This document shows, in pieces, positions 3,605 to 62,908 of a stretch of 64,000 nt of DNA. A model generated the notes under the pieces. The model worked only from the letters and a program-made list of their open reading frames with translations, ran no database searches and was not told where the DNA came from. Both the position numbers and the translations under genes were made by a program. Each line of letters starts with the position of its first letter. Within the stretch, counting starts at the first letter, position 1. Source of the stretch: Ottowia sp. (GTDB taxonomy: Bacteria > Pseudomonadota > Gammaproteobacteria > Burkholderiales > Burkholderiaceae_C); NCBI GenBank assembly GCA_052170415.1, contig JBQNAO010000003.1, forward strand, positions 43,400 through 107,399. Direction: 5' to 3'.

Positions 3605-3676
3605 AAAGCCTCAACCGCCGGAAAGGCCCGTGGATACTGCGCTGGCCGCTACAAAACATGTAGCAATCTGAACATC
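3605..3676 (-). repeat. DnaA-box intergenic repeat family, copy A (degenerate, box lost) between gspG and gspH
   Basis: Reverse complement reads GATGTTCAGATTGCTACATGTTTTGTAGCGGCCAGCGCAGTATCCACGGGCCTTTCCGGCGG. Shares ...TGTTTTG(A)TAGCG...CGCAGTATCCACGGGC with copies H and G. Confidence 0.5.
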
Positions 3677-3679
3677 CCG

Positions 3680-4213
3680 ATGCTGTTTGTGCAAGCGTTT
3701 GCCGCCCCCCGTCTTCTGCCCGCCCCTCGCCCGAATGAGGGCGGGCGGGCTGCGCGCGCGTGCGGCTTCACGCTGGTGGAGCTGCTGGTGGTCTTTGCCA
3801 TCCTGGCGCTGGTGATGGCGCTTGCGCCGGCCTCGCTGGGGCGCATGTATGAAGCGGCGCAATACCGCAGCGCTGTGCGTGGCATCGTCACCGATATGCG
3901 CGCAGCCCGCATGCTTGCGCAAAGCGAGGGGCAGGAAGTGCGCTTTACGGTCAATTTGCACGAACGCACTTTCGGCCTGGAAGGCGGCCCGCGCCACACC
4001 TTGCCCGAGCCGCTGCAAATGCGCGCCATCGCCGCCCAGCAGGAAACCAGCGCCAACAGGCAGGAAATGGGCATCCGCTTTCTGCCGCGCGGCGGGGCAA
4101 CCGGCGGCAGCGTGGATGTATTGCGCCCCTCGGGCGACGGCGTGCGCCTGCGTGTGGACTGGTTTTCCGGCCGCGTGGAGCAAGAGCCAGCTACTGGGGA
4201 GGCCGCGCGATGA
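3680..4213 (+). CDS. gspH: Minor pseudopilin, GspH-like
   Basis: 177 aa with a G|FTLVELLVVFAILALV prepilin motif. Position matches gspH. The leader is unusually long, so the start is uncertain. The stop overlaps the next ATG (ATGA). Confidence 0.7.
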   Translation: MLFVQAFAAPRLLPAPRPNEGGRAARACGFTLVELLVVFAILALVMALAPASLGRMYEAAQYRSAVRGIVTDMRAARMLAQSEGQEVRFTVNLHERTFGLEGGPRHTLPEPLQMRAIAAQQETSANRQEMGIRFLPRGGATGGSVDVLRPSGDGVRLRVDWFSGRVEQEPATGEAAR

Positions 4214-4668
4214 AACCTCTGCCCGAACCGCTGCGCAAGCCCGCAAAGGCTCTGGCGCTTCAAGCGCCCGGGGCGCGGCAAAGCGGCCTTACCTTGCTGG
4301 AAGTGCTGGTGGCTTTTTCCATCATGGCGATGTCCATGGGGCTGCTCTATCAGGCGATGGGCAGCAATGTGCGGCATACGGCTGATATGGCCGAGCGTGA
4401 AAAGGCCGCCCTGCTGGCCGAATCCCTGCTGGCCATGCACGAGCTGGTGCCGCCGCAAGGCGTCAATGAATCGGGCCAATCCGCCGCCTATCAATGGACG
4501 CTGCGCAGCGTGCCCCATCCCACGCCGCTGAATGCGCAAAACCCGGCTGCCGCCGCCCTGCACGAATTGCAAGTGAGTGTGCGCTGGGGGCAGGATGCGC
4601 CCCGCGAGCTGACCTTGAGCACCTTGCGGCCGCAGCGCCTGCTTCAGCCGGGCGAGAGGCTGCGATGA
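4210..4668 (+). CDS. gspI: Minor pseudopilin, GspI-like
   Basis: 152 aa with a G|LTLLEVLVAFSIMAMS prepilin motif. ATGA overlaps on both sides. Confidence 0.7.
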   Translation: MKPLPEPLRKPAKALALQAPGARQSGLTLLEVLVAFSIMAMSMGLLYQAMGSNVRHTADMAEREKAALLAESLLAMHELVPPQGVNESGQSAAYQWTLRSVPHPTPLNAQNPAAAALHELQVSVRWGQDAPRELTLSTLRPQRLLQPGERLR

Positions 4669-5345
4669 AGCGCGGCTTGATGAAACGCATGGCCCCAGCG
4701 GCCCGGCTGGGGCGCGGCTTCACCCTGCTGGAAATGCTGATTGGCATGGCGCTGTTGTCCGTGCTCATGCTGGCGCTGGGCGGCGCCCTGTTTTCCGCTG
4801 CGCAAACCGAGGAGCGGCTGGACGCGCGCCTGCAAGCGGCCGAGGACTACCGGCTGATGACGGGCTTTTTGCAGGAAACGCTGGCGCAGGCTTCGTTGCA
4901 GCAAGTGAAATCCGGCGACGACTTCCGCATCTTTTTCAACGGCCAGAGCGACTCGCTCGAATGGGTGGGCAACCTGCCCGCTCGTTACGGTCTGGGCGGG
5001 CGGCACTTTCTGCGCCTGGGGCTGGAGCGAGATGCGGCCGGCGCAGGGCGGTTGGTGCTGCGCTACATCCCCTGGAGGGACACTCCCGGCGCGCTGTCGT
5101 GGCAGGCGGCGGCTGCGCAGACGCTGGCTGCGCCCGTTACGGGCCTGAGCCTGCGCTACCAGCACCCGATCAGCGGCCAGTGGCAGCCCCTGTGGCAAGA
5201 CACCAGCCAGAGGCGCGAGCGCCTGCCCTCTGCCGTGGCCCTTGCTCTTGAAGGCCCCGAGCCTGCCTGGCCCCTGCTGGCCGTAGCGATGCGCGCGCCC
5301 ATGGCATCAGATCAGGACGCGCGTTCCGAGGGCTTCGGGCCATGA
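4665..5345 (+). CDS. gspJ: Minor pseudopilin, GspJ-like
   Basis: Internal ATG at 4665 of ORF 4494..5345 gives MKRGLMKRMAPAARLGRG|FTLLEMLIGMALLSV. It overlaps the gspI stop (ATGA). Confidence 0.7.
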   Translation: MKRGLMKRMAPAARLGRGFTLLEMLIGMALLSVLMLALGGALFSAAQTEERLDARLQAAEDYRLMTGFLQETLAQASLQQVKSGDDFRIFFNGQSDSLEWVGNLPARYGLGGRHFLRLGLERDAAGAGRLVLRYIPWRDTPGALSWQAAAAQTLAAPVTGLSLRYQHPISGQWQPLWQDTSQRRERLPSAVALALEGPEPAWPLLAVAMRAPMASDQDARSEGFGP

Positions 5346-61336: not shown

Positions 61337-62005
61337 ATGCTCAATCTGGACTTTTCCTTCGTCACCTACGCCCTGCTGCAAGACTTCATCTTCAAGGGCC
61401 TGCGCTTCAGCCTCTTGCTCACCGCCGTAGCCACGCTGGGCGGCATTCTGTTTGGCACCGTGCTGGCGCTCATGCGCCTGTCGGGCGCGCGGTGGCTGCA
61501 GTGGCCCGCCGCGCTTTATGTCAACGGCATGCGCAGCATTCCGCTGGTCATGGTCATCCTGTGGTTTTATCTGCTCGTGCCCATGCTCACCGGGCGGCCC
61601 ATAGGGGCCGAATACTCGGCCATGCTCACCTTCATCGCGTTCGAGGCCGCCTACTTCAGCGAAATCATGCGCGCCGGCATCCAGTCCATCCCGCGCGGGC
61701 AGGTCTTTGCCGGGCAGGCTCTGGGCATGACTTATCTGCAAAACATGCGCCTGGTCGTGCTGCCGCAGGCCTTTCGCAACATGCTGCCCGTGCTGCTGAC
61801 GCAAACCATCATCTTGTTTCAGGACACCTCGCTGGTTTACGCCATAGGCGCCTATGACCTAATGAAAGGCTTTGATCTGGCAGGAAAAAACCTGGGCCGC
61901 ACGGTGGAAACCTACCTGCTGGCCGCGCTCTTTTACTTCGCCATCTGCTACAGCCTCTCCTGGCTGGTCAAACGCCTGCACGCGCGCGTGGCCATCATTC
62001 GCTGA
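61337..62005 (+). CDS. gltK: Glutamate/aspartate ABC transporter permease
   Basis: 222 aa. EAAYFSEIMRAGIQSIPRGQ EAA loop. Confidence 0.8.
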   Translation: MLNLDFSFVTYALLQDFIFKGLRFSLLLTAVATLGGILFGTVLALMRLSGARWLQWPAALYVNGMRSIPLVMVILWFYLLVPMLTGRPIGAEYSAMLTFIAFEAAYFSEIMRAGIQSIPRGQVFAGQALGMTYLQNMRLVVLPQAFRNMLPVLLTQTIILFQDTSLVYAIGAYDLMKGFDLAGKNLGRTVETYLLAALFYFAICYSLSWLVKRLHARVAIIR

Positions 62006-62071
62006 GGCAGATACGCCCAACCTCCTTCATTTCATGCAACCCACAAGCCAACCGAAGAAAGCCGCAGCAAC

Positions 62072-62821
62072 ATGAGCGAACCGATGATCCAGATAGAAAA
62101 CGTCTCCAAGTGGTATGGCCCCGTGCAGGTGCTGAGCAACTGCTCGGTGAACATCGCCCGGGGCGATGTGGCCGTGGTGTGCGGGCCTTCCGGCTCGGGC
62201 AAGTCCACGCTCATCAAAACCGTCAACGGCCTGGAGCCGGTGCAGCAGGGCCGCATCGTGGTCGACGGCACCGAAGTCACCAGCGCCGTCACCCACCTGC
62301 CCAGGCTGCGCAGCCGCGTGGGCATGGTGTTTCAGCACTTCGAGCTGTTTCCCCATCTGTCGGTCACGGAAAACCTCACCCTCGCGCAAGTGAAGGTGCT
62401 GGGCCGCAGCCTGGACGAAGCCAAAGCGCGCGGGCTGAAGATGCTCGACCGCGTGGGCCTGATGGCGCACAAGGACAAATACCCCGGCCAGCTCTCGGGC
62501 GGCCAGCAGCAGCGCGTGGCCATTGCGCGGGCGCTGAGCATGGACCCGGTGGTCATGCTGTTTGACGAGCCGACCTCGGCGCTGGACCCCGAAATGGTGG
62601 GCGAGGTGCTGGATGTGATGGTCAGCCTGGCCAAAGAGGGCATGACCATGATGGTCGTCACGCACGAAATGGGCTTTGCCCGCAAGGTCGCCAGCCGGGT
62701 GATCTTCATCGACGTGGGCGGCCACATCCTGGAAGACTGCTCCAAGGAAGAGTTCTTCGGCAACCCCGAAGCGCGCCAGCCGCGCACCAAGGACTTCCTG
62801 GGCAAAATCCTGAACCACTGA
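62072..62821 (+). CDS. gltL: Glutamate/aspartate ABC transporter ATP-binding protein
   Basis: [37 protein letters not shown]. Confidence 0.88.
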
Positions 62822-62825
62822 TTGC

Positions 62826-62908
62826 CTAAAAATCAGGCGAGATGCCCGCAGCGCCCGTAAATGCTGCGAAGCGTGCTATCAATTCAGGAAAAATCTGTGG
62901 ATAACTCG
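62826..62908 (-). repeat. DnaA-box intergenic repeat, copy N
   Basis: Reverse complement reads GAGTTATCCACAGATTTTTCCTGAATTGATAGCACGCTTCGCAGCATTTACGGGCGCTGCGGGCATCTCGCCTGATTTTT. DnaA box at 62896..62904. Confidence 0.9.

Follow-up and report, generated by a model that had tools for sequence, protein, structure and literature searches.

An Ottowia-like lineage carries a very-high-copy intergenic mosaic repeat with a conserved consensus DnaA box

The window, i.e. the whole stretch of 64,000 nt analysed here, contains fourteen copies (A to N) of an intergenic repeat. A covariance model built from these copies recovered 14/14 and found no other match in the window, and its positions agree within about 20 nt with those listed in the original prediction. 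Each copy is intergenic, the neighbouring genes being predicted or supported by Pfam, and both orientations occur (counted as 7 plus and 7 minus), as had been proposed. The copies, together with one locus that varies between strains, are the following:

Copy A, 3598..3680, minus strand: box-less "simple core" with a GCTACA..TGTAGC hairpin and CGCAGTATCCACGGGCC; covariance model 50.8 bits; between a gspG-like gene and the next pseudopilin gene.
Copy B, 17040..17122, plus strand: DnaA box 17043-17051, core decayed; upstream of a YidB-like gene.
Copy C, 21569..21651, minus strand: box-less core, with the inverted repeat TGTAACAGT...ACTGTTACA around it (about 21556-21664); metallophosphoesterase and aminotransferase genes converge on it.
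Copy D, 29333..29416, minus strand: DnaA box 29405-29413; GCTCT/AGAGC local hairpin; GCTTATTTGATGGGC tail; between macA-like and Bmp/PnrA genes.
Variable locus, 30707..31929, no strand: between the Bmp and SpoU-methylase genes; order and content of gene(s)-plus-element units vary between strains.
Copy E, 31351..31433, plus strand: DnaA box 31354-31362; after the BrnT/BrnA module.
Copy F, 31779..31886 (core match 31779-31861), plus strand: box variant TTATCCATA; 3' module CAAAATCTTGTATCCAGATATGAAC; after the DUF2798 gene.
Copy G, 35284..35366, minus strand: DnaA box 35355-35363; alanine racemase and TauE genes converge on it.
Copy H, 39208..39290, minus strand: DnaA box 39279-39287; terminator-like 3' end (GCGGC..GCCGC TTTTTT).
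Copy I, 43717..43824 (core match 43717-43799), plus strand: DnaA box 43720-43728; 3' module; downstream of the exonuclease I gene.
Copy J, 45677..45784 (core match 45677-45759), plus strand: DnaA box 45680-45688; 3' module.
Copy K, 45986..46068, plus strand: DnaA box 45989-45997; antisense to proC.
Copy L, 52450..52532, plus strand: box-less simple core.
Copy M, 54605..54673, plus strand: degenerate box-less core; covariance model 32.3 bits, core HMM E=5e-7.
Copy N, 62825..62907, minus strand: DnaA box 62896-62904; between convergent genes.

The exact 9-mer TTATCCACA (TTATNCACA), which is a consensus DnaA box of the R1/R4 type, occurs nine times in the window, against 0.05 expected from dinucleotide-preserving shuffles. 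The predicted count of nine exact boxes and a tenth variant is thus correct, the variant being that of copy F. The claim of a perfect DnaA box at the 5' end of the repeat stands for those nine copies and fails for A, C, L and M, in which only the core is present. Subfamilies defined by shared 3' modules were also recovered, with CAAAATCTTGTA... in F, I and J and GCTTATTTGATGGGC in D and K; and the short ORFs suspected to be spurious do carry translations of the element (..DSALRSI.., ..HRFFL.). Copies J and K form a two-unit head-to-tail array, J being the first unit; the ortholog of copy B retains the consensus core; and the copy N locus of a related strain has one additional element-plus-spacer unit.

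The host belongs to the Comamonadaceae and is placed close to Ottowia. Metagenome contigs, mostly of the same species, yielded about 270 further copies (288 matches, 273 unique, 218 box-bearing), and the copy density in the Ottowia-like lineage is about 1 per 5-7 kb. The 803 kb contain 227 TTATCCACA sites, none of them outside an element and each at the same internal position. The density of boxes is about 1 per 7 kb versus about 1 per Mb expected. The unit is modular, intergenic and about 83-110 bp long, with the block order TTATCCACA - N16 - ATAGC - N6 - CGCAG - N5 - ACGGGCGCTGCGG - N6 - TTGC and variable linkers. TAGC, 6 nt upstream of CGCAG, is invariant and preceded by A (~70%) or G (~30%), and a GCAA-like motif is found at both element boundaries, free of the variability that a duplication would show. 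Optional repeated modules can be attached 3' and upstream of the core; the unit of ~80-105 bp described originally is the best-conserved part of this larger mosaic. The element is a real, unnamed, lineage-specific repeat of very high copy number, whose function we infer only.

The test proposed as a possible refutation, whether the 9-mer is conserved better than its neighbours, did not refute the idea. Mismatches per site amount to 0.9% in the box, versus 13-26% in the adjoining bases and 19% at positions 13-27, and the conserved 5' footprint coincides precisely with the 9-bp DnaA box. The box is exact in 201/218 box-bearing copies, and 11 more have TTATCCATA. The core blocks show mismatches of 0% (TAGC) and 0.6% (CGCAG); their conservation is in part overestimated, since the metagenome loci had been collected by means of a core pattern, one that did not include the 9-mer. 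Orthologous copies of two strains differ at 1 of 72 box sites versus 49 of 592 other sites, numbers that are small and a pattern that gene conversion between copies could also give. Since orthologous elements evolve faster than the remaining aligned DNA (92% versus 95.5% identity), most of the element is not strongly constrained. The blocks could also look conserved because the copies derive from a small number of active master copies, instead of through selection on resident copies.

Searches at syntenic loci of relatives at 79% protein identity found no element copies. Box-less cores are present both in the window (copies A, C, L and M) and in Curvibacter soli and a Giesbergeria MAG; the box is therefore a lineage-specific addition and not ancestral.

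Copies that lie within 600 nt of each other have the same orientation in 90/92 cases and opposite orientations in 2/92, forming head-to-tail arrays with 2-5 boxes per ~1 kb. Adjacent spacers in the arrays are 84-90% identical, being repeated modules themselves, and multi-unit blocks of 700 nt are common to loci with unrelated flanks. Polymorphisms between strains consist of gains and losses of units, limited at element starts (exactly so for one unit indel), and are confined to array size and to the choice of small gene-plus-element units at one hot spot, which points to recombination-driven dynamics. In this hot spot, the Bmp-SpoU locus, one element follows each small gene module (BrnT/BrnA, DUF2798, MazE/PemK), and the modules are permuted or replaced across strains; within one strain, adjoining elements resemble each other instead of moving with a "cassette". 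In comparisons of four to five strains over 20-35 kb of syntenic DNA, array size was all that changed; no new insertion sites appeared, nor any clean pair of filled and empty sites at a new locus.

The absence of any consistent relation to the direction of flanking genes, proposed from the window, extends to 110 arrays and singletons, of which 28 are co-directional, 30 antisense, 36 convergent and 16 divergent; convergent regions are thus somewhat enriched. The scan of positions 29-47 kb of the window agreed that the repeat is not a promoter, with no promoter-like sites, and only copy H was terminator-like, which speaks against an identity as sigma-70 promoter or intrinsic terminator. The alternative stems that had been suggested (AGCGCCC/GGGCGCT and CGCAG/CTGCG) can be drawn, but have support neither from covariation nor from folding energy: single-stranded DNA folding of the consensus and of individual copies gave z = -0.2 to -1.8, no better than shuffles, and helices 1-3 showed 0-1 compensatory changes and 88.0% pairing versus 87.7% in the shuffle control. 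The label of "REP/MITE-like dispersed element" therefore holds in part: the element is dispersed, high-copy and intergenic, but has no stable palindrome, its main type has no terminal inverted repeats or recognisable target duplication, and its neighbours are direct. Shuffle-level folding and 90 direct versus 2 inverted neighbours argue against a palindromic REP/REPIN, and the features of the main type argue against a MITE of the inverted-repeat and target-duplication kind.

The best explanation as a whole, to which we give somewhat better than even confidence, is a lineage-specific mosaic repeat with recombinational dynamics, whose conserved blocks would be protein-binding sites. An older box-less core, present in other Comamonadaceae, would have gained the 5' TTATCCACA module in the Ottowia-like lineage, and the box-bearing subfamily would then have expanded. 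The present-day dynamics are recombinational, with arrays gaining and losing whole element-plus-spacer units; element-carrying circles or segments may integrate at, or recombine with, other elements, in which case direct repeats arise automatically. The element would act at the DNA level and not as RNA, and the simplest reading of its conserved blocks is that proteins bind them. The one at the 5' end is a consensus DnaA box that stays intact while its surroundings drift, which suggests that DnaA binds it, and the element population may be the source of most high-affinity DnaA boxes outside oriC. Judged only by the match to the consensus box, DnaA binding or titration at the elements is plausible.

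It is unlikely, but deserves consideration, that the element is a conventional non-autonomous transposon with the DnaA box at its end as a host-factor site. By analogy with the ends of Tn5/IS50, DnaA or the mobilising enzyme itself would bind TTATCCACA, so that the transposition complex is assembled or regulated there; copies would need an intact box to proliferate, which would explain why the box looks conserved. There is one DnaA site each in the outside and mosaic ends of Tn5, and DnaA is a host factor for its transposition (PMC3347997). The position of the box, 3 nt from the apparent 5' boundary and the sharpest conserved block, fits this precedent, as do the species-specific burst and a minor subtype (7 loci, including copy C) with inverted termini of 9-17 bp, TGTAACA...TGTTACA. 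On the other hand, the main type has no inverted copy of its 5' end, all 227 boxes occupying one internal position. Besides the lack of recognisable target duplications and of new insertion sites, neither the window nor the related contigs inspected between inverted copies (~740 kb) yielded an enzyme, transposase or recombinase for the element, the ORFs between the three closest inverted pairs being YbeY-like, DUF1311-like and one without assignment; Pfam found no RAYT gene in the window.

We regard as distinctly improbable a co-option by the host, in which a recently amplified repeat would have seeded several hundred consensus DnaA boxes that selection keeps. The boxes would then form a distributed DnaA sink, a genome-wide and evolvable titration system ("distributed datA"), or sites of local DnaA-dependent transcription; equivalently, the repeat would be selfish DNA whose spread is tied to replication control and limited by it. 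The footprint of exactly 9 bp, the avoidance of the box by post-insertion substitutions and the excess of boxes over expectation are consistent with this, and an ATCCAC motif in the core loop is commoner in box-less copies (22/41 versus 42/226). However, since close relatives have no copies at syntenic loci, the cell does not need the elements, and the repeat is older than the box, which was added recently.

The titration of the initiator by DnaA boxes on the chromosome has long served as a model for the timing of bacterial replication, but one that is difficult to test, natural boxes being few, scattered and old. This lineage would offer a natural experiment, with about one perfect box per 7 kb from a single repeat family, its 9 bp visibly protected from decay, and none of these in close relatives. 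Repeat-rich and repeat-free relatives could be contrasted for DnaA level, initiation mass, ori/ter ratios and DnaA occupancy. Apart from DnaA, this unnamed and very dense family determines in part how plastic the genome is, as arrays expand and small gene modules are shuffled, and it gives rise to spurious ORFs, and to breaks in metagenome assemblies, in an oral or host-associated group.

A still smaller chance is given to site-specific recombination sites analogous to integron attC, with the arrays as cassette arrays. The unidirectional arrays, the permuted Bmp-SpoU modules with one element each and the indel limits at element starts would agree with it. But GGATAAC/GTTATCC, read by eye, does not fit the R''/R' core sites RYYYAAC/GTTRRRY; there is no second core site and no imperfect palindrome; no recombinase was found among the scanned ORFs of the window and no integrase gene nearby. 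In addition, copies are scattered among housekeeping genes in both orientations, only 3/45 spacers of at least 200 nt look coding, the spacers being repeats, and the resemblance of neighbours within a strain better fits homologous recombination or gene conversion. A multicopy small RNA, 3'-end stabiliser or intrinsic terminator is very improbable: T-runs end several copies, the hairpin of copy H is terminator-like, G-T pairs in the stems as drawn would become G-U if that strand were RNA and convergent regions are somewhat enriched, but tandem contexts show no orientation preference (28 versus 30), the promoter, covariation and folding results above speak against it, and the family is absent from Rfam, with 0 matches at the gathering score in the whole window and none for the elements of region 43600-46200 at E<=10.

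Among known systems, integron attC arrays, CALINs included, are similar in that their repeats, 60-140 nt long, all point one way and enclose small gene modules such as toxin-antitoxin pairs, as at the one locus here; the Ottowia element differs in having no core sites, bulged hairpin or integrase, in its mostly non-coding repeated spacers and in its genome-wide dispersal in both orientations. It resembles Tn5/IS50 in that one DnaA box lies within a few bases of a mobile-DNA terminus (PMC3347997), but the 19-bp inverted repeats of Tn5 surround a transposase gene, and the Ottowia element has neither inverted partner nor transposase. Like datA, DARS and the DnaA-box clusters of Bacillus subtilis, it places consensus DnaA boxes in the chromosome outside the origin. 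Those loci are unique and positionally conserved, with several close boxes and IHF or Fis sites, whereas the element has one box per unit in hundreds of units and is absent from close relatives.

With BIME/REP and REPIN-RAYT systems the element shares high copy number, strictly intergenic and non-coding nature, a mosaic of short motifs, clustering and enrichment between convergent genes. The known BIMEs of Enterobacteria bind host DNA proteins such as IHF, gyrase and Pol I. REPs are stable palindromes of 20-40 nt in alternating or inverted arrangement, with a GTAG or CGTC head, mobilised by the RAYT gene that they flank; the Ottowia element is ~83 nt long, has no stable palindrome and no RAYT in the window, and forms direct arrays, and its TAGC is reminiscent of GTAG yet does not adjoin a palindrome. 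BOX and ERIC elements fold into long, stable hairpins and probably act as RNA; the Ottowia element lacks such a structural signal and is unlike them in sequence. Like BOX of Streptococcus pneumoniae (boxA-boxB(n)-boxC) and ERIC/IRU, it is modular and intergenic with a variable number of internal modules, and it represents a lineage-specific burst with no encoded protein. In kind, it would be a non-coding mosaic repeat comparable to the BIMEs of E. coli or the pneumococcal BOX elements.

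All 14 copies of the repeat listed in the original prediction, lettered here A to N by position, were matched by a covariance model built from 13 of them, which gave no further match in the window; direct and inverted repeat searches of the window also recovered the family. The intergenic placement holds for every copy, the neighbours being genes with a coding signature or Pfam support. The exact DnaA box, TTATCCACA, occurs nine times at the places reported, against 0.05 expected in dinucleotide-preserving shuffles, and none of 100 such shuffles of the window reached nine. The 5′ module is present in ten copies, with the exact box in nine and TTATCCATA in copy F, while copies A, C, L and M consist of the core alone. 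With a G+C content of 42–63%, compared with 61–69% in the window, the elements form AT-rich islands.

Degenerate copy A lies antisense between two pseudopilin genes of a type II secretion operon (128–11000), which encodes a GspE/F-like ATPase and platform, four pseudopilins with the GFTLxELL N-terminal motif and a GspD secretin (8490–10874); its G+C drops to 0.61 in the 8–12 kb part. In the gap that separates the exonuclease I gene from an autotransporter-like gene, copy I is directly followed, at 43822–43896, by a strong hairpin, AAAAAAGCCAGCCCGAGGGCTGGCTTTTTT, that resembles a bidirectional terminator. Its weak, sub-threshold Rfam matches (STnc370, 34 bits; gathering score, 54) are terminator look-alikes, and another strain does not have the 46 nt adjoining it (window 43899). 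Directly after copy M there is an 11-G homopolymer (54695–54705). It falls within the 5′ end of an NHL-repeat protein ORF if this is read at its longest (54665–56047), or just upstream of the ORF if the start is later. A role in slipped-strand phase variation is possible for this tract, which among the strains only the window covers.

The best protein matches of the window are from Comamonadaceae, near Ottowia and canine oral taxon COT-014. A metagenome scan with the core pattern, without the DnaA box, returned 120 loci, most of them from one sample. Several share synteny with the window, their aligned pieces being ~86–98% identical (mostly 94–98%), and thus represent another strain of its species. 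In the window and all fetched loci, nhmmer found 288 copies, 273 of them unique, and 218 of the unique copies carry the exact 9-mer. Across 803 kb the 9-mer has 227 sites, every one within an element; in one case this is a truncated copy where a contig ends. No element was found in the syntenic loci of relatives at ~79% protein identity (21 kb each searched), so the amplification is lineage-specific. No name for the family was found in Rfam (nothing at the gathering score over the whole window, nor at E ≤ 10 in one region), by BLAST against plasmids, in scans of viral contigs or in the literature searched.

The original prediction had asked whether the 9-mer is better conserved than its flanks, and it is.

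Mismatch to the consensus over 218 box-bearing copies; values for the core blocks are partly flattered by the retrieval of loci with the core pattern, outside which the 9-mer lies.
Two bases before the box: 22% and 16%
Nine box positions: 0.9%
Two bases after the box: 13% and 26%
Positions 13–27: 19%
TAGC: 0%
CGCAG: 0.6%
ACGGGCGCTGCGG: 6%
Linkers and tail: 23–30%

The conserved 5′ footprint is exactly the 9-bp consensus DnaA box. In eight orthologous pairs, one of 50 substitutions fell within the 72 box sites and 49 in the 592 other sites. The motif ATCCAC is kept in the core loop in 22 of the 41 copies without a 5′ box (against 42/226), and the 5′ module, AGTTATCCACAG, is similar to AGTATCCACGG of the core. 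The exact footprint, the few box substitutions and the retention of ATCCAC in box-less cores are evidence in favour of the box as a selected unit. Against this stand the lack of elements in living relatives and the recent addition of the box; in addition, the counts are small, and either descent from master copies or gene conversion could pass for purifying selection. A consensus DnaA box, perfectly conserved, is a well-supported and unusual feature of the element, and Tn5/IS50 offers a precedent for a mobile-DNA end carrying a DnaA site (PMC3347997). That the elements serve an adaptive function by titrating DnaA is a minority reading, which we consider improbable; if true, it would be highly interesting, and it can be put to a direct test.

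The core without the box, GCTAYN..NRTAGC - N6 - CGCAGTATCCACGGGCSYTGCGG, was found in three settings. The first is other genera, Curvibacter soli and a Giesbergeria MAG, the only two real matches among those listed by a genome-contig scan whose loose pattern gave mostly chance ones in high-GC genomes. The second is metagenome contigs of lower G+C (50–59%), and the third is "simple" copies within the species of the window. In intermediate copies, TTATCCACAR runs straight into the simple core's TTTGCT...TAGC hairpin, so that the DnaA-box module seems to have been added at the 5′ end of an older repeat. The lower-G+C contigs belong to another organism, and their box-less cores are arranged head to tail in units with a common flank of their own, GGAAATACTGYYGTCGATTTCAATGACAGAGCT (L096, 313–719; L098, 872–967; L046, 146–229); array formation is therefore not confined to the Ottowia-like species.

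Further modules adjoin the element. The predicted subfamily tails were recognized in the copies, and a 3′ module, AAGCAAAATCTTGTATCYRAATRC..., extends copies F, I and J beyond the 83-nt unit. Arrays of the other strain have an upstream module that does not occur in the window, a 12-bp hairpin, perfect or with G-T pairs, of the form GCGGGCCGGTTT-TCAG-AAAYCGGCCCGC, after which come TTTCC and a second, small hairpin (GCCTT..AAGGC). Of its 22 occurrences, 17 are 38–40 nt upstream of the box sequence TTATCC (e.g. L099, 1200–1282; L054, 700–791; L114, 6360–6425). In a minor subtype (copy C and six other loci), the core lies between TGTAACA...TGTTACA inverted repeats of 9–17 bp. Just downstream of copy C, other strains have the 9-mer GCCTGATTC repeated in tandem a variable number of times (L032, ~4170–4221; L033, ~1790–1860; L113, ~3260–3350), of which the window ortholog (~21480–21540) keeps only a degenerate remnant, CCATTCGATTCGCC.

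Neighbouring elements less than 600 nt apart share the same orientation in 90 cases and are opposed in two. Their spacers measure 75–530 nt; adjacent ones are often 84–90% identical, modules are common to many, and 700-nt multi-unit blocks are repeated at loci with unrelated flanks. A coding look was seen in three of 45 spacers of at least 200 nt. Comparison of four to five strains over 20–35 kb of syntenic DNA revealed no new or empty element sites, and the differences at existing sites were changes of array size only. At copy N, one extra unit of element plus spacer distinguishes strains, with edges exactly at element starts; at copies C and D, one or two units differ. Between strains, orthologous elements share 92% identity, whereas the remaining aligned DNA reaches 95.5%; the differences in the elements are clustered. 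These two findings suggest gene conversion.

Taken together, the spacer, array and strain evidence points to a present-day behaviour that is recombinational. Unequal crossing-over between elements would change the arrays, units of segment plus element would be excised and re-integrated at other elements, and conversion would act between elements. A circle integrating at a homologous element would necessarily yield direct repeats, which would explain the 90:2 bias. On balance, we lean towards a reading that combines a DNA-level mosaic repeat, recombination-driven dynamics and a conserved box that is probably bound by DnaA.

A separate strain difference was observed at 22891–24341, where ~1.4 kb of the window is missing from contig L113 of a related strain (gaps of 549, 303 and 556 nt). 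This segment contains a 439-aa ORF (23012–24331, minus strand) whose type I restriction HSDR_N domain makes it a candidate strain-specific defence or mobile gene.

At the locus flanked by the Bmp/PnrA-like gene and the SpoU-methylase gene, one element follows each small gene module, and the modules vary between strains in order or content, with MazE/PemK in one strain.

Gene and element order at the Bmp-SpoU locus.
Window, 30707–31929: Bmp, BrnT/BrnA, element E, DUF2798, element F, SpoU
L123, 1172–2446: Bmp, DUF2798, element, BrnT/BrnA, element, SpoU
L155, 2318–3446: same order as L123
L154, 1699–3190: Bmp, MazE/PemK, element, BrnT/BrnA, element, SpoU

The DUF2798 and BrnTA genes, at ~85%, are more diverged here than the genome average. 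The two elements of one strain are alike in their 5′ halves and do not travel with the adjoining gene.

Readings at the RNA level fared poorly. Stems can be drawn as proposed (P1, GTTATC/GATAGC; P2, CGCAG/CTGCG; the alternative AGCGCGC/GGGCGCT; and a 3′ hairpin) and are paired in 81–95% of copies, but the paired positions are merely invariant and the stems were rejected for want of compensatory variation: helices 1–3 show 0–1 compensatory changes, with pairing of 88.0% against 87.7% in a shuffle control. When the consensus and individual copies were folded, as either strand, their energies fell inside the shuffled distribution (z from +0.1 to −1.8). Both neighbouring genes were predicted for 110 arrays or singletons. 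Of these, 36 have convergent and 16 divergent flanking genes, while those in tandem contexts comprise 28 co-directional and 30 antisense cases. The lack of a preferred orientation, as originally described, speaks for a feature of the DNA and against an RNA acting in cis. At 29–47 kb in the window there is no sigma-70-like promoter, in agreement with the earlier view that the repeat is not a promoter, and a 3′ end resembling a terminator is confined to copy H. The orientation counts and these scans led us to reject the terminator, promoter and sRNA readings.

Of the description as REP/MITE-like and dispersed, the dispersed intergenic repeat stands and the likeness to REP/REPIN and TIR/TSD MITEs is loose at best. 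Unlike REP/REPIN, the element has no stable palindrome, its arrangement is direct instead of inverted, and no RAYT was seen in the window; the ORFs between the closest inverted copies look like ordinary genes, which speaks against mobilization by a RAYT. The main type shows neither the terminal inverted repeats nor a recognizable target duplication of TIR/TSD MITEs, and the defining features of attC sites and of every Rfam family are likewise lacking. Unidirectional arrays and toxin-antitoxin/DUF2798 units recall integrons, a reading against which core sites, palindrome, integrase and spacer coding all speak. Resemblances to sigma-54, IHF, LexA, parS and dif sites were dismissed by eye. In the way it works, the element comes closest to BIME, BOX and ERIC, which are mosaic intergenic repeats, and the family is a real, very dense and unnamed bacterial interspersed mosaic repeat.
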